Assembly (NCBI RefSeq): GCF_015207365.1
Contig: NZ_JADEXA010000076.1
Span: 1 to 28,524, forward strand
Source: Vacuolonema iberomarrocanum LEGE 07170
GTDB lineage: Bacteria > Cyanobacteriota > Cyanobacteriia > Elainellales > Elainellaceae
Reading direction: 5' to 3'
Length of the DNA: 28,524 bases
The position numbers were made by a program, and so were the translations under genes. Positions 4,031-28,407 of the stretch are shown in pieces (position 1 is the stretch's first letter; the number at the start of each line of letters is the position of its first letter). The notes under the pieces were generated by a model. The model searched no databases and had not been told where the DNA came from. It worked only from the letters and a program-made list of their open reading frames with translations.

Positions 4031-4081
4031 ATGATTTTTTCTGAGCAGGGGCGTACCACGCATCTGCTCAGAAAAAATCAT
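4031..4081. repeat. perfect 18-bp inverted repeat (ATGATTTTTTCTGAGCAG / CTGCTCAGAAAAAATCAT) with 15-nt loop
   Basis: Read directly. Lies in the divergent pilin / malic-enzyme intergenic region. Confidence 0.85.
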
Positions 4082-6153: not shown

Positions 6154-6264
6154 CTGAGTACAGGACAAAAACCAGATAATTCTTGATTTTGGGTGGCACG
6201 GGTATTGCCTGCGCCACCCAAAATCAAGAATTTTAGCAAGGTTTTATTTTTGTCCTGTACTTAG
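6154..6264. mobile_element. 111-bp MITE-like element with 18-bp terminal inverted repeats and 9-bp target-site duplication
   Basis: TIRs are CTGAGTACAGGACAAAAA (6154-6171) and TTTTTGTCCTGTACTTAG (6247-6264), matching at 17/18 positions. The direct repeat GTTATCTCT flanks the element at 6145-6153 and 6265-6273. An internal perfect 20-bp inverted repeat is AATTCTTGATTTTGGGTGGC (6178-6197) / GCCACCCAAAATCAAGAATT (6213-6232). Confidence 0.65.
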
Positions 6265-8504: not shown

Positions 8505-8589
8505 CTATAGCGATCTCAAATGATATGTGAAATCGGATGTGAAAGGTGGGCACAGCCCACCTTTCACATCCGATTTCGGATTGCTATAG
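8505..8589. repeat. 85-bp nested palindromic element with a 23-bp perfect stem
   Basis: GAAATCGGATGTGAAAGGTGGGC (8529-8551) - aca - GCCCACCTTTCACATCCGATTTC (8555-8577). Outer arms are CTATAGCGATC (8505-8515) and GATTGCTATAG (8579-8589), matching at 10/11 positions. Confidence 0.8.
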
Positions 8590-14047: not shown

Positions 14048-17000
14048 ATGGGGTCGGAACAGGGGCTGAACTATGGGCTGAATGCACTGGGAACGACGCT
14101 GTTTGTTGGACGGCGATCGGAGCTGGATGTCTTGCATCAGAAGCTGATAGGGAGCGGGGGCGATACTCAACAGGTTGCCATTGCTGCCGCAGCGGGGATG
14201 GGTGGCGTTGGCAAAACGGCCTTGGCACGCGCTTATGTGCGAGAACAGGCAACGGGCTATCCCGGTGGCATTTGGTGGCTTCGGGTGCGCGAGGTAGATC
14301 TGGTGTCAGAAATTTTGGCGGCGGCAGCATTTTTTGGCTGGGAGGTGCCCGACTTACCCATTGATGACCCAGAGCGAAAGCAAGTTCAGCAAGTGGCCTG
14401 GTGCTGGCAGCAGTGGCAAGATGCTGCACCGGGAAATCGATTGCTGGTGCTGGATGATGTACCGGACTACAGCACAATACAACCCTTCTTGCCGGGAGAT
14501 GCTTCCTTTCGGGTGTTGCTGACCTCAAGAAGGAGATTCAGTCAACCTGTAGATCAAATAGATCTGAGAGTAATGAAGCGAGCAGAAGCATTCCGCACCT
14601 TCCGTCGATATGTGAATGATGATGAGCGAATTCGAGTAGACGTAATAACGGCAAAAGCTATTCTGAACTGGCTAGGCTATTTACCACTGGGTATCGAGCT
14701 AATAGGAAAATATCTAGAGGCTCGCCCCAGTGTATCACTAGTAATTCTGTGGCAACGACTCCAAGAAAAGCGTTTGGATGCAAAAGCTCTGAAGGAGCTA
14801 CCTGAGGAACAGGCTTACGAATATGATATTCGGGCGGCTTTGGAACTTAGTTGGCAAGAGCTTTCGCCTTTGGCGCAACAGGTAGCAGGACTTCTCTCCA
14901 TCTTTGCTCTAGCACCAATTCAACAAGACTGGATCCTGTATGCCCTTAAGGATTTTAGACAGCCTCTAAACAAGGCATTCGCCAAATTAGTCTCAACGTT
15001 CAATCCTTTTCGGAAGCGAGGTACTCCTAATCTCATACTTAATATCACTTTAGAAGAGTTGGAAAATGTCCTGGACAAGGAACTAGTACAAGGTTCAATG
15101 GTGCAACGCTTGGAACCAGGTCGCTATCAATTGCATCAACTGGTGCAAGAATTCTTAGCGGATCACCTAAAAACTAAACTAGCTATCCACACCAAGGTCT
15201 TGCAACTAGGTGTTGTAAATGCTGTGGCTCAACAAGCTAAAATCATCCCTTCCTCCCCCACTTTAGCTGACTTGACTTATCTGCAAGATTTTATTCCACA
15301 CGCCACTACCATTGCCCACAAACTTATCCATTTATCACCCAATAATGCTGGATGGTTATTGACAAGTTTAGCAGCATTATCACAGCTACAAAACCGTTGG
15401 GACGAGGCTGAACACTGGCACAAGAAGTGGCTTAGCATGGCTGAGTTTCGTTTTGGCTCTAGTCATCCCGAAGTAGCTAATAGCTTAGATAATTTAGCTC
15501 TTTTTTATCAGACAGTAGGACGCTACGATGAAGCAGAATCCCTATATAAAAGAGCTCTTAATATCTACCAGAAATATTTAAGATCCAATAGTTCGGACAT
15601 TACTAGCAAACTTAATAATCTAGCATTACTTTACAACAACCTAGCATTACTTTATTGGAGGATGGAGCGATATGATGAGGCAGAATTCCTTTATCATGAA
15701 TCACTCGCTCTTAGGGAGGGTCAGATAGAAATAGATCATGACAATATTATTACTACCTTTAGTAATCTAGCAGTTCTTTACCGAGCAATGAAACGCTACG
15801 AAGAGTCAGAAAAACTGTGTAAAGAAGTGCTACTAGAAAGAGAACAACATCTTGGATCTGATCATCCCGCGGTTGCCACTAGTTTAAATAATCTAGCATT
15901 GTTATACGAAAAGATGGAGCGCTATGAGGAGGCTGAATCATTATACAAGCGAGCTTTCACTATTCAGAATCATCATATGGGGGATGATCATCCTGAAACT
16001 GCCAATATTCTATATAATTTAGCAAACCTTTATTACGAAATGAAGCACTATGAGAAGGCGGAGCAACTGTTTTGTCAAGTACTTCAAATTTATGAAACTC
16101 AATTTGGTGACGCTTATCCCCTGGTTGAAGAGTTATTATCGCCATTAATACTAGCTTGCTTAGAAAATCAGCAATATGATAGTGCTGAAGCTTTCTTATT
16201 AAAATTGATCCAGCTTAGAAGCGATAAATTAGGTAACAGTCATTCTGAAACATTAGCTACTCGTAGGTCTTTAGCAGCCTTGTACCGCTCAGTCAAGCGT
16301 TACAGGGAATCTGAAGCCTTATATTTAGATTTACTTCAGATTTACAATATTCAACTTGATGCTGATCCTTTCAACGCTGCGACGATCCTCAATGATTTGT
16401 CTGAGCTCTACATAGTGATGGAACGCTATTCTGAAGCAGAACATCTCTTAAAAAAACTGCTTCAGATTCGAGAGAGTCAATTAGGTAACGAGCATCTTGA
16501 TATAGCTGATTGTCTTAATAAGTTAGGTTATCTGTATACTTTGATTGGATATTATGAAGAAGCAGAGTCCTTGTATCTAAGAGTACTTCAGATTAGAAAT
16601 GCCTCTCTGGGAAGTACTCATCAGCTTACTGCTGACAGCTCGAATGACCTGGCATATCTTTATAAATCAATGGGACGTTATTCTGAAGCAGAGTTTTTGT
16701 ATCAGGAGGCGCTTAGGGTTTCAGAAAGCAATTTTGGGGCTGATAGTCTCGAAATTATTCTAAATTTGAATAACTTAGCAATGCTTTTGGAATCGATGGA
16801 ACGATATGAGAAAGCAAAAACACTAACTGAAAGAATACTTTATATTCAAACATTGCACTTGAGTGGTGATCACTCTGAGACTATAGATACTCTCTTTGAT
16901 TTGGCAAGCCTTCACAAATCAATGCAGCAATATAATGAAGCAGAATCATTGCTGCTGCAAGCTGTTCAGCTCTTAGAGAAAAATCTGGATTTTAGTCACC

Positions 17001-17260
17001 CTGATTTTGTCACAGCTCTAAACAATTTGGCGGTGTTATATGAATTAACGCAACGTTACGAAGAATCTGAAAAATTTTATTTACGTGCTCTCGATATTGA
17101 TTTGACTAGTTCACCTCAAGATTGTCCTAACACTAACTCTATCCATGAAAGGTTGAGTCGGATGATACAGACTGCACTAGAAGCAGGGGAAGCAGAACAA
17201 TTGTCTGATAATTCGACCACTCAGGAAGTGTTGCGGCAGCTAAGAGAGCATTCAGATTAA
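14048..17260 (+). CDS. STAND NTPase: NB-ARC domain with about 14 kinesin-light-chain-type TPR repeats and no N-terminal effector domain
   Basis: FVGRRSEL, Walker A AAGMGGVGKTALA (about aa 50), Walker B RLLVLDDV, LLTSRRR, and GLPL-like GYLPLGIELIG. These are followed by 42-aa repeats with recurring xRY(D/E/S)EAExLY ... LNNLA(L/V)LY. Confidence 0.9.
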   Translation: MGSEQGLNYGLNALGTTLFVGRRSELDVLHQKLIGSGGDTQQVAIAAAAGMGGVGKTALARAYVREQATGYPGGIWWLRVREVDLVSEILAAAAFFGWEVPDLPIDDPERKQVQQVAWCWQQWQDAAPGNRLLVLDDVPDYSTIQPFLPGDASFRVLLTSRRRFSQPVDQIDLRVMKRAEAFRTFRRYVNDDERIRVDVITAKAILNWLGYLPLGIELIGKYLEARPSVSLVILWQRLQEKRLDAKALKELPEEQAYEYDIRAALELSWQELSPLAQQVAGLLSIFALAPIQQDWILYALKDFRQPLNKAFAKLVSTFNPFRKRGTPNLILNITLEELENVLDKELVQGSMVQRLEPGRYQLHQLVQEFLADHLKTKLAIHTKVLQLGVVNAVAQQAKIIPSSPTLADLTYLQDFIPHATTIAHKLIHLSPNNAGWLLTSLAALSQLQNRWDEAEHWHKKWLSMAEFRFGSSHPEVANSLDNLALFYQTVGRYDEAESLYKRALNIYQKYLRSNSSDITSKLNNLALLYNNLALLYWRMERYDEAEFLYHESLALREGQIEIDHDNIITTFSNLAVLYRAMKRYEESEKLCKEVLLEREQHLGSDHPAVATSLNNLALLYEKMERYEEAESLYKRAFTIQNHHMGDDHPETANILYNLANLYYEMKHYEKAEQLFCQVLQIYETQFGDAYPLVEELLSPLILACLENQQYDSAEAFLLKLIQLRSDKLGNSHSETLATRRSLAALYRSVKRYRESEALYLDLLQIYNIQLDADPFNAATILNDLSELYIVMERYSEAEHLLKKLLQIRESQLGNEHLDIADCLNKLGYLYTLIGYYEEAESLYLRVLQIRNASLGSTHQLTADSSNDLAYLYKSMGRYSEAEFLYQEALRVSESNFGADSLEIILNLNNLAMLLESMERYEKAKTLTERILYIQTLHLSGDHSETIDTLFDLASLHKSMQQYNEAESLLLQAVQLLEKNLDFSHPDFVTALNNLAVLYELTQRYEESEKFYLRALDIDLTSSPQDCPNTNSIHERLSRMIQTALEAGEAEQLSDNSTTQEVLRQLREHSD
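15614..15655 (+). repeat. in-frame tandem 21-nt duplication inside a TPR unit (NNLALLY-NNLALLY)
   Basis: AATAATCTAGCATTACTTTAC / AACAACCTAGCATTACTTTAT, read directly. Confidence 0.85.
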
Positions 17261-17530
17261 ATGAGATTTTTCAGATGGAATGAGCAGATAGAGGTTTGTG
17301 AGCATGAAATGAGAAGCATTTGAGCAGAAAAGCTGGATAGGGAAGTGAATATACCCCTGCAAGAGTAAGGTTGTTATCCAATCAATGCTTGCTCGCCCTA
17401 CGGTTCAAGATGATTTGTATGTTACGGCGGATCTTCTTGCAGATTTCGTAGGTGTGGGCACTTTTGATCGTCTGGTGCGGGCGATCGACTTGGGCGAATG
17501 GTGCCTGCGAATGAATTGTGAGCTGGTGTG

Positions 17531-18175
17531 AGCCAATCTGTTGAAATGGGTTGATGCCTCAGGGCACCTACCCGCCCGCGAATGAATGGCGGGCTAATGG
17601 GAGGAAACCCATTGAAATGGGTTCAGCCCCAGACACCAATGCGGGCAGAGAACCCAGTCCACGACAGTGGACTTAATGCGGTAGCCCGCCATTCATTCGC
17701 GGGCGATTCCCACGGATGACAGCGGGCGAATAGGAGCAAAGCCATTGAAATAGGTCGATTGTTCGAGGCACACCCCCGCCCGCGAATGAAATTGCGGGCT
17801 AATGGGAGAAAACCCATTTCAATGGGTTCATGCTGCAAACACCAATGCTGTCAGAAGCCCAGTCCACGACAGTGGACTTGATGCGGTAGCCCGCCATTGA
17901 TTCGCGGGCGATTCTCACGGATGGCGGCGGGCTAGTGTGAGCAAAGCCATTGAAATAGGTCGATTGTTCGAGGCACACCCCCGCCCGCGAATGAAATTGC
18001 GGGCTAATGGGAGAAAACCCATTGAAATGGGTTCATGCTGCAAACACCAACGCTGGCAGAGACCCAGTCCACGGCAGTGGACTTAATGCGGTAGCCCGCC
18101 ATTCATTCGCGGGCGATCTCGACGGATGGTAGCAGGCGATGGAAGCAAATCCATTAAAACGGGTTCATCCCAGCA
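17531..18175. repeat. tandem array (about 3.1 copies, period 204-205 bp) of REPIN-like units, each with two inverted REP hairpins and two further hairpins
   Basis: Forward REP GCCCGCGAATGAA(T/ATT)GGCGGGCTA at 17574, 17778 and 17983. Inverted REP (G)TAGCCCGCCATT(C/G)ATTCGCGGGC at 17682, 17887 and 18092. Inter-REP hairpins include AACCCAT-tgaa-ATGGGTT (17606-17623) and AGTCCAC-gaca-GTGGACT (17656-17673). The flanking copies are degenerate. Confidence 0.8.
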
Positions 18176-18191
18176 AGCATTCATCGGTCGA

Positions 18192-18656
18192 TTAATGGGG
18201 TTTACGCGGAATGTTGAAGAATTGAGGTTCCAGCCCACGAATTAGGGTTTGGGTGTCATGGTGGTGTTTTTGGTTTTCCACATAGGCGATCGCATCTGGC
18301 AATTGTTTCCGGCCTAATGAGAACACCCCATATTCTCGTTGCCATGCGAAGGTTTGGTCTGGGAAGGTTTTATTCAGATGGCGGGAGCTGCTGCCTTTGA
18401 TGCGTTTGACGAATTGAGCGATCGCCAGTTTGGGCGGAATGGACACAATCAGGTGAACATGATCCTCAATCCCCCCAATTGCATGAAACCAACAATCCAA
18501 GGATTTCGCTTTGGCCTGCATGTATTGGTAGAGTTCAGGGCGGATGGGGTCGGTGATTAGGGGAGTGCGATCGCCCGTCGCCCACACCAGATGATAGTAG
18601 GTCTGCCAAGTTGACATTACGCGTGCTTCCTGTGGTTCTTTCTGCAAGATGCCCAT
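18192..18656 (-). CDS. IS200/IS605-family Y1 (HUH) transposase, RAYT-like (REP-associated tyrosine transposase)
   Basis: YHLVWATGDRTP, HUH motif in DHVHLIVS, Tyr region WQREYGVFS, and YVENQKHHH. No tnpB partner. The 3' end sits 17 nt from the REP array. Alternative ATG at 18617. Confidence 0.85.
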   Translation of the reverse strand: MGILQKEPQEARVMSTWQTYYHLVWATGDRTPLITDPIRPELYQYMQAKAKSLDCWFHAIGGIEDHVHLIVSIPPKLAIAQFVKRIKGSSSRHLNKTFPDQTFAWQREYGVFSLGRKQLPDAIAYVENQKHHHDTQTLIRGLEPQFFNIPRKPH

Positions 18657-19764: not shown

Positions 19765-20052
19765 TCATAGGGCGATCGCGCCGTTCGGCGGTGGCGTTCC
19801 CGGACATTTTGTGGGCAGCTCTACAGAGCGCTCTGCCCCTGTCCATTCATAAATCTCCAGCATGGCAGCACTACAGGAGGTACACCCAGAGCACTTTTCA
19901 ACGACGGGTAATGCCCGCACGCGTCCTTTACGAATGAGCCGCTGCAACATCGAACGCAGGTGATCGGCATCCGTATGGAAATGGGTAGCCAAGTCTGCCA
20001 GGGATGCCTGGTGGTTTTTGGCAAGGTACGTTTGAAGGTCGGTGAGAATCAT
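19765..20052 (-). CDS. feoC: FeoC-like winged-helix protein
   Basis: MILTDLQTYLAKNHQASLADLATHFHTDADHLRSMLQRLIRKGRV plus a Cys cluster CSGCTSC. Located at the distal end of the feo operon. The ORF track extends to 20085; the ATG at 20052 fits FeoC length. Confidence 0.75.
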   Translation of the reverse strand: MILTDLQTYLAKNHQASLADLATHFHTDADHLRSMLQRLIRKGRVRALPVVEKCSGCTSCSAAMLEIYEWTGAERSVELPTKCPGTPPPNGAIAL

Positions 20053-20064
20053 GAGCTTAAGAAA

Positions 20065-20088
20065 CACAAAGGCACAAAGATACAAAGG
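20065..20088. repeat. left 24-bp inverted repeat CACAAAGGCACAAAGATACAAAGG, i.e. (YACAAAGR)x3
   Basis: Read directly. It matches the reverse complement of 20553-20576 at 23/24 positions. Confidence 0.9.
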
Positions 20089-20102
20089 AATGAGGAGAAG
20101 AA

Positions 20103-20489
20103 TTAGAGGGCGATGCGTTTGATGCCATCTCTGATTAAGGGGGTATTGAAATTAATGAGCAGCCCAAGCCGATGTTGGGAGAGCTTGAGATAGGTCATGA
20201 GTTGAGCGGTGTGAATGGGGAGAAGTTCCGCTACGGCTTTAAGTTCAACAATGACGCAGCGGTTGACCAATAAATCGAGTCGGAACCCTGCATCAAGTTG
20301 GACATTTTCATAAATCACTGGCAAAGCCAGCTGACGATCGACGGTTAAGCCTCTTTTTGTCAGCTCGTATTCCAGGCATGTTTCGTAGACGCTCTCCAGA
20401 AGTCCTGCACCCAAGACGGAATGAACCTTGAATGCCGCATCAACAATTTCTTTTGCAACCTGATTTGTTGTGTTGTCGATGGGTTTCAT
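20103..20489 (-). CDS. GxxExxY family protein (PD-(D/E)xK nuclease-like superfamily)
   Basis: Signature GLLESVY, then ..DLLVNRCVIVELKAV.. (D..ExK-like) and ..YLKLSQHRLGLLINFN... ATG at 20489 is preceded by AGGGAG. The ORF-track extension to 20666 reads through the repeat and the feoB 3' end. Confidence 0.85.
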   Translation of the reverse strand: MKPIDNTTNQVAKEIVDAAFKVHSVLGAGLLESVYETCLEYELTKRGLTVDRQLALPVIYENVQLDAGFRLDLLVNRCVIVELKAVAELLPIHTAQLMTYLKLSQHRLGLLINFNTPLIRDGIKRIAL

Positions 20490-20552
20490 CGCAGCTCCCT
20501 GTTGTTGAAACCGCAAATACCCAGAGGCACAAAGCCAGCAACGGGAATATTC

Positions 20553-20576
20553 CCTTTGTGTCTTTGTGCCTTTGTG
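20553..20576. repeat. right 24-bp inverted repeat CCTTTGTGTCTTTGTGCCTTTGTG
   Basis: Read directly. Partner of 20065-20088. Confidence 0.9.
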
Positions 20577-20587
20577 GTGAGTTTTCC

Positions 20588-22972
20588 CTATTGTGGGAGG
20601 GCGCGTCTCCAGCTCCGCAGGAGGAGAAGCGTGGCACCGAGGGCGATCGCCAAACCGATGATCCAACCCATTGAGGTCGTTGGGTGTTGGCTAAAGGTTG
20701 CGCCTTGGTAGAACAGGACGGCACCCCAGTACGCGAGGCCCGTTGTCCACAGCCCAACAAAGGTCGTCCATCCGGCGTTGGTTTCGCGGAAGACGGCACC
20801 CATAGCAGCGACGCAAGGGAAGTACAACAGCACGAACAGCAGGTAGGCAAAGGCTCCGGCCTGTCCGTCGAAGCGGGTTGCCATGGCTCCAAAGGTTCCT
20901 TGGGCCACTTCTTGCTCCTCAGCAGCGGTTTCGATGTCGCTCACATCGCCCACGTTGAGGCCGAGGGGGTCGAGCAGCACGGCAGGCACTTCTGCCAGGT
21001 TGGCCGGAATCGTGGAGACAGCTTCGCCAAGGCCACCCCAGAAGCTGAAGTCACTTTCGTCTTCGGGTTCAATCCCTGCGGCGATCGCATCCTCTTCAGC
21101 CAATGCGCCGTAAAGGGAATCCAGGGTGCCAACCACCGCTTCTTTGGCAAAGACGCCCGTGAAGATACCAACGGTGGCGGGCCAGTTATCTTGCTGGATG
21201 CCCATAGGCGCGAAGGCGGGCGTGATGGTGCGGCTAATGGAACTGAGTACCGAGTTGTCACTATCATCGTTGCCAAAGGAGCCATCGGTGCCAATGGAAC
21301 TCAGCAGGCTGAGGATCATGACCATAATCACAATCACTTTACCGGCGCGCAGGACAAAGGCTTTCAGCCGATCCCAGGTGCGGAGCAACACGCCCTTGGC
21401 GGTAGGGATGTGATAGGGGGGCAGCTCCATGATGAAGGGAGAAATTTCCCCTTGCAGCAGGGTTTGCTTCATCACAAAGCCGGTGAAGATGGCGGCGGCA
21501 ATGCCCAACAGGTAGAGGCCGAAGACGACATTCTGTCCCGACAGGGGGAAGAAGGCCGCGGCAAACAGGGCATAGACCGGGAGCCGCGCCCCACAGGACA
21601 TGAAGGGATTCATCAAGATGGTGAGCAGGCGATCGCGCCGACTCTCCAACGTCCGTGTCGCCATGATGGCAGGCACGTTGCAGCCAAAGCCAATTAGCAT
21701 CGGCACAAAGGACTTACCCGGCAATCCCACCCAGCGCATGAACCGATCCATAACAAAGGCGGCACGCGCCATGTAACCCGAGTCTTCCAGCACCGCAACG
21801 AAGAGGAACAGGAAAGCAATCACGGGAATGAACGTGGCCACGGTTTGAATACCGCCACCCACGCCGTTTGCGATCAAGACTACCAACCATTCGGGGGTTC
21901 CAATGCCGCCCAGGGTATGGCTGACGGCATCTACAAAGATGGTTCCGGCGGCGATGTCAAAGAAGTCGATGAAGGCTCCTCCCACATTGATCGTGAAAAG
22001 GAACAATAGATACATGCAGAACAGGAAGATGGGAACACCCAGCCACCGATTGAGCACGATGCGATCGATGCGATCGGAGGTGGTGATGCCAACCTCTCCC
22101 TGACGATGGGCGGCGGTTTGCACCAGATTGCAAATCCAGCCATAGCGACTGTCGGCGATCAAAATATCCACATCTTCGTGGCGCAGTTGATGAATGCGAT
22201 GCCGCTGTTCGGTTAGGGCACGAACCAACTCTGGGCCACTGCCATTGGGAGCGGCGGTGTCGTCTTGCTCCAGCAGCCGTAGTGCCGTCCAGCGCGAATC
22301 AACGGGGCTGAGGGGCAACTGGGTGGTGATGAGCGGTTGCAGCGTGGCGATCGCCTCTTCCACCACAGGCGGGTAGGCCACATAGGCATGGGTAATAATG
22401 GGGCGATCAAGGCTGGTGGCGATCGCTGACTTCAACGTATCAATGCCCTGGTTGCGTGAGGCCACAATGGGAATCACCGGACATTGCAGCTTCTCAGACA
22501 GCGCACTCACATCAATGTCGATGCGCCGATCTTCCGCCATGTCCACCATATTCAGCGCAACGATCATTGGCAGACGCATTTCCATCAGCTGCGTCGTCAA
22601 ATAGAGGTTACGCTCCAGGTTGGCCGCGTCCACAATATTAACCACTAGATCGGATTCACCCGAGGCAAGATAGGTGCGGGCGATGGTTTCATCCAGCCCT
22701 GTATCAGCATCTTCTGCATCCAGGGCATAAACCCCCGGCAAGTCCACAACCGTCAGATCCCAATGATGGTAGCGATAGCGTCCTTCCTTACGATCGACCG
22801 TTACACCGGGCCAGTTCCCCACTTGTTGGTGGGCACCCGTTAGGTCATTGAACAACGTCGTTTTGCCGCAGTTTGGGTTCCCGACCAGACAGAGGGTGCG
22901 CTGTTCTTGGCCAGAGCCAGAAGGGTCATTCGACCACGCCGCATCGCCGCGACGAGAAATTTCTTTCACCAT
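20588..22972 (-). CDS. feoB: ferrous iron transporter FeoB (N-terminal GTPase plus polytopic membrane domain)
   Basis: G1 GNPNCGKTTLFNDLTG, G3 DLPG and G4 NMVD, followed by a long hydrophobic permease region. 794 aa. Confidence 0.97.
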   Translation of the reverse strand: MVKEISRRGDAAWSNDPSGSGQEQRTLCLVGNPNCGKTTLFNDLTGAHQQVGNWPGVTVDRKEGRYRYHHWDLTVVDLPGVYALDAEDADTGLDETIARTYLASGESDLVVNIVDAANLERNLYLTTQLMEMRLPMIVALNMVDMAEDRRIDIDVSALSEKLQCPVIPIVASRNQGIDTLKSAIATSLDRPIITHAYVAYPPVVEEAIATLQPLITTQLPLSPVDSRWTALRLLEQDDTAAPNGSGPELVRALTEQRHRIHQLRHEDVDILIADSRYGWICNLVQTAAHRQGEVGITTSDRIDRIVLNRWLGVPIFLFCMYLLFLFTINVGGAFIDFFDIAAGTIFVDAVSHTLGGIGTPEWLVVLIANGVGGGIQTVATFIPVIAFLFLFVAVLEDSGYMARAAFVMDRFMRWVGLPGKSFVPMLIGFGCNVPAIMATRTLESRRDRLLTILMNPFMSCGARLPVYALFAAAFFPLSGQNVVFGLYLLGIAAAIFTGFVMKQTLLQGEISPFIMELPPYHIPTAKGVLLRTWDRLKAFVLRAGKVIVIMVMILSLLSSIGTDGSFGNDDSDNSVLSSISRTITPAFAPMGIQQDNWPATVGIFTGVFAKEAVVGTLDSLYGALAEEDAIAAGIEPEDESDFSFWGGLGEAVSTIPANLAEVPAVLLDPLGLNVGDVSDIETAAEEQEVAQGTFGAMATRFDGQAGAFAYLLFVLLYFPCVAAMGAVFRETNAGWTTFVGLWTTGLAYWGAVLFYQGATFSQHPTTSMGWIIGLAIALGATLLLLRSWRRALPQ

Positions 22973-22989
22973 GATGACTTAACCTCACA

Positions 22990-23253
22990 CTAGACAGTTT
23001 GGGGGTCAGTTTTTGATTCGGCGTGCTCAATTTTCAGGGCATCGGCTTCGGCTTTCCGCAGGGTTAGATCAAACCCCCGCACATGCAGTTCTACGGGGTC
23101 ACCCATGGGTGCGAGGCGCAACACTGTAAACTCTGTTCCAGGGGTTAAACCCATCGCCAAGAGTTGGCGCTTATAGTGTTGGGCACTTTCAGCAAAGCCT
23201 GTGATGCGTCCCCGGCTACCTACAGCCAAGTCGCGCAAACGTAAATTGCTCAT
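22990..23253 (-). CDS. feoA: FeoA family protein
   Basis: 87-aa SH3-like FeoA pattern: LRDLAVGSRGRITGF...LLAMGLTPGTEFTVLRLAPMGDPVELHVRGFDLTLRKAEA. Located 17 nt upstream of feoB. Confidence 0.9.
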   Translation of the reverse strand: MSNLRLRDLAVGSRGRITGFAESAQHYKRQLLAMGLTPGTEFTVLRLAPMGDPVELHVRGFDLTLRKAEADALKIEHAESKTDPQTV

Positions 23254-28241: not shown

Positions 28242-28272
28242 GATTTATACCAATTCTCCAAGAACCCACTAC

Positions 28273-28321
28273 AGCTCATTGTTTGAGACCCTCGCGCTGC
28301 GAGGGTCTCAAACAATGAGCT
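28273..28321 (+). terminator. perfect 23-bp stem-loop 32 nt after the ictB stop, same family as 5777..5821
   Basis: AGCTCATTGTTTGAGACCCTCGC-gct-GCGAGGGTCTCAAACAATGAGCT, followed by GGTTTTGGTTTTC. Confidence 0.65.
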
Positions 28322-28407
28322 GGTTTTGGTTTTCATAGAATTATAGCGGTGTGCAACCGCATTAAGCACAGCAACGGTTGTGTGGGGCGCGCCGCGCCCG
28401 TATTTGT

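Follow-up and report, generated by a model that had tools for sequence, protein, structure and literature searches.

A GxxExxY gene nested in a tandem-repeat palindrome at a cyanobacterial feoB-feoC junction, and its apparent exchange as a cassette

Several kinds of element that combine short repeats, palindromes and small genes are already known. These are the hairpins of short tandemly repeated repetitive (STRR) elements, the 23S rRNA intervening sequences (IVSs) that bear an open reading frame (ORF), the REPtrons, in which a gene for a REP-associated tyrosine transposase (RAYT) stands among repetitive extragenic palindromic (REP) sequences, and free-standing homing endonuclease genes. STRR hairpins date from about 1990. 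In filamentous, heterocystous cyanobacteria, STRRs have been catalogued at operon junctions as repeats with a 7-bp unit; tandem copies that face each other as inverted repeats fold into hairpins in spacers such as hupS-hupL, and their function is not known (PMC2670836). The unit described here lies in a stretch of 28,524 nt, termed the window, from the cyanobacterium Vacuolonema iberomarrocanum LEGE 07170 (contig NZ_JADEXA010000076.1). In the spacer between feoB and feoC of this window, a gene of the GxxExxY/PDDEXK_3 family, for which no function is known (PMC3424549), lies between the two arms of an inverted repeat (IR) built from short tandem repeats.

The feoB-feoC spacer (20053-20587) is 535 bp long and contains a single 128-aa ORF. 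The original prediction, made from the letters of the window, had described a GxxExxY gene that fills this spacer in operon orientation, and both the coordinates and the profile matches agree. The inverted repeats that it reported were confirmed in the sequence: the arms are 24 nt long, are complementary at 23/24 positions (96%), are separated by 464 nt and each consist of three tandem YACAAAGR octamers. The arms were also said to stop close to the neighboring genes, and the measured distances are 11 nt on the feoB side and 12 nt on the feoC side. The double octamer YACAAAGRYACAAAGR occurs only at the two arm sites of the window, with 4 overlapping matches versus 0.00 expected from 100 shuffles. 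Like an STRR, therefore, the unit consists of inverted short tandem repeats in an operon spacer. Unlike an STRR, it has a repeat unit of 8 nt (8–10 nt elsewhere), has counterparts in at least 12 bacterial phyla and one archaeon, and has a protein-coding gene nested within it. In the literature, which was not exhaustively covered, no description was found of STRRs that bracket GxxExxY genes, of GxxExxY genes or genes of the 23S rRNA-intervening sequence protein family (23S_rRNA_IVP, PF05635) nested in tandem-repeat palindromes, or of the turnover of such genes. The sampled evidence points to what is apparently an undescribed kind of selfish gene cassette.

Whether other GxxExxY paralogues are bracketed in the same way was examined by scanning one genome per species, which gave 80 loci encoding GxxExxY relatives. 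A gene was counted as bracketed when an inverted repeat scoring at least 13 lay within 200 nt of the ORF; shuffled flanks had reached scores no higher than 8–14 in a first scan over ±150 nt. Tandem-repeat inverted repeats bracket 51 of the 80 relatives, compared to 19 of 628 (~3%) other ORFs of the same loci, and most of those 19 are host genes beside a cassette or 23S_rRNA_IVP genes. The bracketed genes belong to Cyanobacteria, Verrucomicrobia, Planctomycetes, Alpha-, Beta- and Gammaproteobacteria, Acidobacteria, Desulfuromonadales, Bacteroidota, Chloroflexi, Hydrogenedentes, Bipolaricaulota and one Methanocellaceae archaeon. Across these relatives the arms consist of 3–4 tandem units of 8–10 nt with the common core C-R-C-N-R-A-G/T, which appears as CACAAAG, CACCAAG, CGCAAAG, CGCCAAG, CACAGAG, CACGGAG, AACGGAG, CACAGAT or CACGGAT, and the outer end of an arm is often TT(G/C)AAC(C) or TTCAC(C). 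The cassettes typically run from the stop codon of one host gene to the start codon of the next. With respect to both neighbors, 27 are co-oriented and 1 is anti-oriented, in keeping with the operon orientation noted for the window gene. The bracketing that the original prediction had proposed to look for is thus present, and far more broadly than anticipated. A second type of repeat is seen in a Bacteroides cassette (L050, 5942-5990), in which some four copies of an 11-mer (TGGAGACTGAT) stand in tandem in the 5′ leader, after the left arm and before the start codon.

Comparison of related loci indicates that the cassettes are exchanged. The nearest homologues of the window gene, in Prochlorotrichaceae, Limnoraphis and Planktothrix, are 77–81% identical to it and lie in unrelated neighborhoods, each with CAC-N-AAG arms. 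In two Prosthecobacter debontii loci (L005 and L008), the flanking proteins are 97% identical and the cassette proteins 71%, and the L005 cassette is nearer (85%) to that of a Luteolibacter whose flanks are ~70–76% identical. In the nucleotide alignment of L005 and L008, near-identity extends into the left arm by a few bases (up to GGAACCGC) and resumes in the outer right arm (GCGGTTC), so that the arms change along with the gene. Bacteroides species likewise have flanks that are 77–90% identical around cassettes that are 61–66% identical and carry differing unit variants. Downstream of the intact cassette, both Prosthecobacter loci (L005 6440-6540, L008 6450-6560) contain a common relic, in which the final ~40 nt of a GxxExxY gene are joined by a second right arm; in L005 the relic further takes in a repeat of the beginning of the downstream host gene. 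It is the footprint of an earlier cassette. Thus, the divergence between flanks and cassettes, with edges in the arms, means that cassette replacement takes place at fixed sites, that its breakpoints lie in the arms and that older copies decay in place. The original prediction had proposed that these genes are selfish or mobile; the unrelated locations of the closest homologues and a cassette phylogeny incongruent with that of the flanks support exchange.

The feoB-feoC junction itself exists in several states. It is filled in the window and in two further loci of the same species (L001 and L002). In the closest other genome (L207), whose nucleotide sequence is 91% identical to that of the window across feoC, the racemase-like gene and the gene for the Y1 transposase, the feoC-proximal arm is in place 12 nt before the ATG and the left arm is off the contig. 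Homology between the two begins ~2 nt before the inner edge of this arm (window position 20090). Where the GxxExxY gene stands in the window, L207 (1-146) has unrelated filler with CCCCCTTAAAAAGGGGG palindromes, inside which its contig ends. In L208 (FeoC 70% and FeoB 85% identical, same downstream gene), the 93-nt spacer is an arms-only hairpin with an 11-nt loop. Finally, three more distant relatives (FeoB/FeoC 65–72%) have a 12-nt spacer (L209), overlapping genes (L214) and an unrelated simple hairpin (L215), and no octamer hairpin was found at this junction in any of the three. It follows that the octamer palindrome was inserted within this small clade, as a derived state, and that it holds the GxxExxY gene in just one lineage. 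The original prediction had called the unit a precise insertion into an operon junction and had proposed a search for an empty site. Such empty alleles exist in L209, L214 and L215, but the gene-less arms of L208 mean that there was no clean insertion of gene plus inverted repeats into a naked junction. The three alleles fit either entry of the gene into an empty palindrome or its loss from a filled one.

The window protein matches the profiles PF13366 PDDEXK_3 (1.7e-43, 148.1 bits, cut-off 22) and TIGR04256 GxxExxY (6.6e-45, 152.2 bits, cut-off 35) over its full length. It carries the G29/E32/Y35 signature and the catalytic-type residues D72, E82 and K84. Residues E32, D72, E82 and K84 are invariant in 79–80 of the 80 relatives, and this near-total invariance means that the active site is under purifying selection. 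The AlphaFold 2 model has a confident alpha-beta core, with a predicted local distance difference test score of 93.8. A Foldseek search of the Protein Data Bank (PDB) with this model returned weak, generic PD-(D/E)xK neighbors (Cas4 SSO0001, lambda exonuclease and tRNA-splicing endonuclease; E≥4e-3, template modeling score ≤0.54). Identity by fold as a Holliday-junction resolvase or a homing enzyme was considered and set aside, since these neighbors single out neither. The homing endonuclease I-Ssp6803I, the PD-(D/E)xK precedent among such enzymes, was absent from the top Foldseek matches, and a PDB sequence search with the window protein gave no match. GxxExxY genes form large paralogous families, and 19,978 clusters at 50% identity were counted here (E≤1e-3). 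Some members (P0272-P0283, ~270–295 aa) contain two tandem domains and look like fused pseudo-dimers; these forms fit an enzyme that acts as a dimer on a symmetric substrate.

Taken together, the unit may be read as a promoterless, horizontally exchanged PD-(D/E)xK gene cassette that resides in repeat palindromes, on which it probably also acts, a reading to which we give a probability of about 50%. Its descriptive part is very likely correct: the gene-in-palindrome arrangement is family-wide, runs in operon sense, is polymorphic at this junction and is exchanged with breakpoints in the arms, without target-site duplication or transposase. The specific homing mechanism is considerably more tentative. 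In such a mechanism, the nuclease, as a dimer or higher oligomer, would recognize the repeat palindrome and would cut or resolve gene-less copies, with short hairpins as its substrates. Filled copies may be protected because the gene parts the half-sites by ~460 bp. Repair from a filled copy would use the common arms as homology and copy the gene in, after the manner of a free-standing homing endonuclease whose target is a dispersed repeat; alternatively, the arms could mediate exchange independently of the nuclease. Spread among dispersed hairpins would yield large paralogous families, relics and breakpoints in the arms. Expression would come from read-through of the host operon (here feoAB), and the arms may also pair in RNA.

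The unit resembles free-standing homing endonuclease genes in several respects. A small gene, here for a predicted nuclease, is inserted between host genes and is present or absent at a fixed site; its phylogeny disagrees with that of the flanks, older copies survive as relics, and the gene splits a palindrome. The difference is that the putative target here is a dispersed repeat palindrome instead of a unique conserved gene sequence, and that cleavage is what we infer for the GxxExxY protein.

Several observations weigh against the proposed cassette. About 20 syntenic Chryseobacterium orthologues have no inverted repeat at all and keep the active site, so the protein can persist where its own locus has no arms, a hint that it may act in trans or serve the host. 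L007, L030, L044 and L210, a minority of the loci, have the gene between hairpins and not inside one. The tandem nature of the arms lies outside the account that the model gives. Repeat class is associated with protein similarity across phyla to a significant but small extent (54.8% versus 52.4% identity, a difference of 2.3 points that 0 of 2000 permutations reach); tight co-evolution of protein clade and repeat class, which would have been expected to be strong, was rejected on this measurement. Nearly every sampled genome gave a single locus, so that spread among dispersed sites of one genome is a putative step. No solved structure or biochemistry of the family was found in the literature or the PDB, and the nuclease is a predicted one. 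A collection of plasmids gave 8 records and no close relatives. The sole contig with two copies is L210 (850-2370), in which a block of left arm, ~170-nt filler, right arm and GxxExxY gene is tandemly duplicated with near-identical genes, each in the minority geometry.

The octamer palindromes are not confined to the gene, and short gene-less hairpins at operon junctions are far commoner than filled copies. A scan of metagenome contigs for the exact pattern (YACAAAGR)3 returned at least 120 stretches, and among the matches listed, to which the following counts refer, a GxxExxY ORF accompanies 3 of 120. Where an arm has a partner with up to 5 mismatches, it usually forms a short hairpin with a loop of 4–100 nt (76 of 84), and the order is CACAAAG...CTTTGTG in 73 of the 84. 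Many gene-less hairpins hold an inner GC-rich stem, AAAGGCCGC...GCGGCCTTT, and in many loops an inner GC hairpin is followed by T residues, in the manner of a terminator. Among gene-less hairpins with callable neighbors, 15 of 22 are at co-directional junctions with tight spacing. These gene-less hairpins match the description of STRRs. In cyanobacterial relatives (L202-L206), arrays of gene-less hairpins adjoin filled cassettes. The original prediction had allowed that the repeat might turn out to be a common dispersed one unrelated to the gene. This is half true, in that the repeat is dispersed and mostly gene-less but the bracketing of GxxExxY genes is family-wide. One pair of complete octamer hairpins (L136, 4110-4990) encloses a HepT-like (PF01934) toxin-type gene, and therefore other small selfish-type genes may associate with octamer repeats.

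The abundance of gene-less over filled copies, together with their terminator-like loops, raises the possibility of a domesticated system similar to REP/RAYT, in which the hairpins are useful to the host as terminators or messenger RNA (mRNA) stabilizers and the GxxExxY protein maintains or disperses them without being selfish. The window unit resembles a REPtron in that one gene stands between two inverted palindromic repeats that are otherwise dispersed and gene-less, and in the tandem hairpin arrays beside the gene. The vertically inherited Chryseobacterium orthologues, which retain the active site without repeats, also suit a host function. On the other hand, RAYTs are typically found as one per repeat class, compared to ~20,000 GxxExxY clusters in large paralogous families. 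Cassettes that are polymorphic and replaced at fixed sites look selfish and not like housekeeping genes. Moreover, the window protein has the PDDEXK_3 fold and not the Y1_Tnp/HUH fold, so that another chemistry would be required, and its arms are tandem arrays. A domesticated system is thus quite unlikely in our estimation.

A candidate REPtron does occur in the window itself, 1.5 kb from the unit. At 17385-18656, an IS200-like Y1 transposase gene has directly upstream of it an array of REP-like palindromes with a period of ~205 nt. The elements of the array are CGCCCGCGAATGAATGGCGGGCTA, found at 17573 and in inverted form at 17682, 17887 and 18092, and AACCCATTGAAATGGGTT at 17606, 17811 and 18016. 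The transposase gene (18192-18656, minus strand) matches PF01797 at 6.6e-30 and has a sub-threshold REP_Tyr_transpos match, and array and gene together look like a RAYT/REPtron. L207 has a truncated Y1_Tnp gene at the same place.

Genes of the 23S_rRNA_IVP family appear to be a second cargo. Seven PF05635 ORFs are present in the fetched loci, of which 4 are clearly and 2 weakly bracketed by inverted tandem 7–8-mers. Their arm motifs (GGAGACA, CGTAATT, AATTTGAA and CGGTATG) differ from those of GxxExxY genes. In L018, L035 and L054, the bracketed PF05635 gene shares its genome with a GxxExxY cassette bearing CAC-type arms. To our knowledge, the origin of ORF-bearing 23S rRNA IVSs is unexplained. 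The original prediction had drawn an analogy between these IVSs and the window unit, both of which have complementary arms around a small ORF in a transcribed unit and a possible long stem. The analogy is apt: since PF05635 genes in the same loci are likewise bracketed by tandem-repeat palindromes, the likeness exceeds one of shape. There are also differences, as the window unit stands at an mRNA operon junction and not in an rRNA helix (no rRNA or Rfam match), and its cargo is a PD-(D/E)xK protein and not a four-helix bundle. A broader proposal is that GxxExxY and 23S_rRNA_IVP genes are both cargo of an unrecognized class of mobile element. Such elements would colonize tandem-repeat palindromes at operon junctions and rRNA helices in Bacteria and some Archaea, by gene conversion that is initiated by the nuclease or mediated by the arms, without transposase or target-site duplication. 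This proposal is speculative, and we regard it as somewhat unlikely.

The same likeness allows the unit to be understood at the level of RNA. As an IVS-like element, its arms would pair in the feoAB-GxxExxY-feoC transcript, the duplex would be cut by RNase III or would insulate the insert, the insert would be tolerated by the host and the ORF would obtain its own mRNA. The palindrome would then serve mainly in RNA, and the role of the protein would be unrelated to the repeats. Folding of the 551-nt spacer indeed predicts a long-range stem between the arms, in the minimum free energy structure and in the centroid alike (z = -2.7). In addition, a local hairpin that the original prediction did not include can form between the feoB-proximal arm and a degenerate partner in the leader at 20510-20534 (-41 kcal/mol, z = -5.8). 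It competes with the long-range stem, which dominates the fold of the whole spacer, and the same leader-partner architecture is present in the Verrucomicrobial cassettes L010 and L052. The strong co-orientation with host operons and the failure to find a sigma-70-like promoter inside the unit also fit an element that is transcribed with its host. The bracketed 23S_rRNA_IVP genes are a further parallel. Correia and enterobacterial repetitive intergenic consensus (ERIC) elements are processed in mRNA, a precedent for such a fate. Similarly, STRR hairpins have been proposed to stabilize transcripts (PMC2670836). In a single case, the arms-only hairpin of L208 (-47 kcal/mol), pairing is better in sense RNA (23/24, with 5 G:U pairs) than as DNA (18/24).

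This G:U bias is not general. Mismatches between cassette arms would form G:U pairs on the sense strand in 37 cases versus 30 on the antisense strand, with 103 transversions, and among gene-less hairpins all transitions are one-directional in 8 versus mixed in 15. Wobble bias was therefore rejected as evidence for an RNA stem. The spacer matched no Rfam family at E≤5, and 12 related loci matched none at the gathering score. Furthermore, RNA pairing alone leaves the conservation of one motif core across phyla unexplained, as it does the replacement of cassettes with breakpoints in the arms. We consider it unlikely that RNA pairing is the whole explanation. These readings are not mutually exclusive, and it may be through RNA pairing that the operon tolerates the insert.

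It could also be that no functional link exists between gene and arms, and that tandem-repeat palindromes grown by slippage at operon junctions merely trap or border small genes, with a GxxExxY role in, for example, defense or repair. The HepT-like gene of L136 would be a case of such trapping, as would the host genes that are flanked by the arms of neighboring cassettes. The variable geometry and the weak association of motif with protein point in the same direction. Coincidence is difficult to reconcile with the enrichment of bracketing (55–64% versus 3%) and with the recurrence of the same core motif beside this family across at least 12 phyla. Nor does it account for the other motifs borne by 23S_rRNA_IVP genes in the same genomes (L018, L035 and L054), or for the swapping of arms along with the gene during cassette replacement. 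This explanation is the one that we find most improbable.

Two further classes of mobile element resemble the cassette. Miniature inverted-repeat transposable elements (MITEs) and similar sequences, such as the Correia repeat enclosed element and ERIC, are short inverted-repeat elements of gene junctions that fold in mRNA, and the gene-less and filled copies recall MITEs and autonomous elements, respectively. The unit shares terminal inverted repeats with transposons, but its arms are tandem arrays and its only ORF is the 128-aa PD-(D/E)xK domain, with no transposase (DDE, HUH or similar). Among 46 cassettes, 28 have no flanking direct repeat and, one poly-A run excepted, the rest have 1–2 nt, which is chance level. 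As no target-site duplications were found, a classical transposon or MITE was ruled out. Integron cassettes are similar in that they carry a promoterless single sense ORF and are exchanged at imperfect palindromes, and crossovers here occur in a conserved outer core (GAACCGC...GCGGTTC). Unlike them, the unit has no attI or array platform, and palindrome halves stand on both sides of the ORF instead of one attC at its 3′ end. No integrase was found among the window ORFs near the unit.

The link between the GxxExxY family, STRR hairpins and ORF-bearing IVSs gives each of them a testable hypothesis, which is that a nuclease binds or cuts its own repeat palindrome. If the broader proposal is true, one class of mobile element would account for where STRR-type repeats, ORF-bearing rRNA IVSs and two very large orphan protein families come from. 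The cassettes would also be a new example of selfish genes that persist inside transcription units. For annotation, it is relevant that they split operons such as feoABC without obvious inactivation. The features of the feoB-feoC spacer and the bracketed PF05635 genes are listed in Table 1.

Table 1. Positions of the palindrome unit and its host genes in the window, and of bracketed PF05635 genes in other loci
Feature	Position	Strand	Details
feoA	22990-23253	-	Upstream of feoB
feoB, upstream host gene	20588-22972	-	FeoB_N 8.5e-65; stop codon 11 nt from arm
feoB-proximal arm	20553-20576		Three tandem octamers; coding (-) strand: CACAAAGG CACAAAGA CACAAAGG
Degenerate partner arm in 5′ leader	20510-20534		Alternative local hairpin with feoB-proximal arm
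Small predicted hairpin	20491-20514	-	Contains GGAG Shine-Dalgarno-like sequence just 5′ of ATG (prediction)
GxxExxY/PDDEXK_3 gene, 128 aa	20103-20489	-	Profile matches; signature and catalytic-type residues
feoC-proximal arm	20065-20088		One mismatch to other arm; coding strand: CCTTTGTA TCTTTGTG CCTTTGTG
Whole unit, palindrome arms and nested gene	20065-20576	-	No internal sigma-70-like promoter found
feoC (FeoC-like), downstream host gene	19765-20052	-	FeoC 3.7e-20; ATG 12 nt from arm
Bracketed PF05635 gene, L018	11075-11520		
Bracketed PF05635 gene, L035	2560-3096		
Bracketed PF05635 gene, L054	10400-10883		
Bracketed PF05635 gene, L127	560-1110		

Elsewhere in the window, long near-perfect intergenic hairpins with arms of 23–44 nt and loops of 3–5 nt are found at 8529-8577, 6178-6232, 4031-4081 and 28252-28342, and their sequences are unrelated to the octamer arms. 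A 1070-aa ORF at 14048-17260 has an N-terminal P-loop (GMGGVGKT) and, by eye, long TPR-like repeats, and resembles a STAND/NB-ARC-TPR protein.

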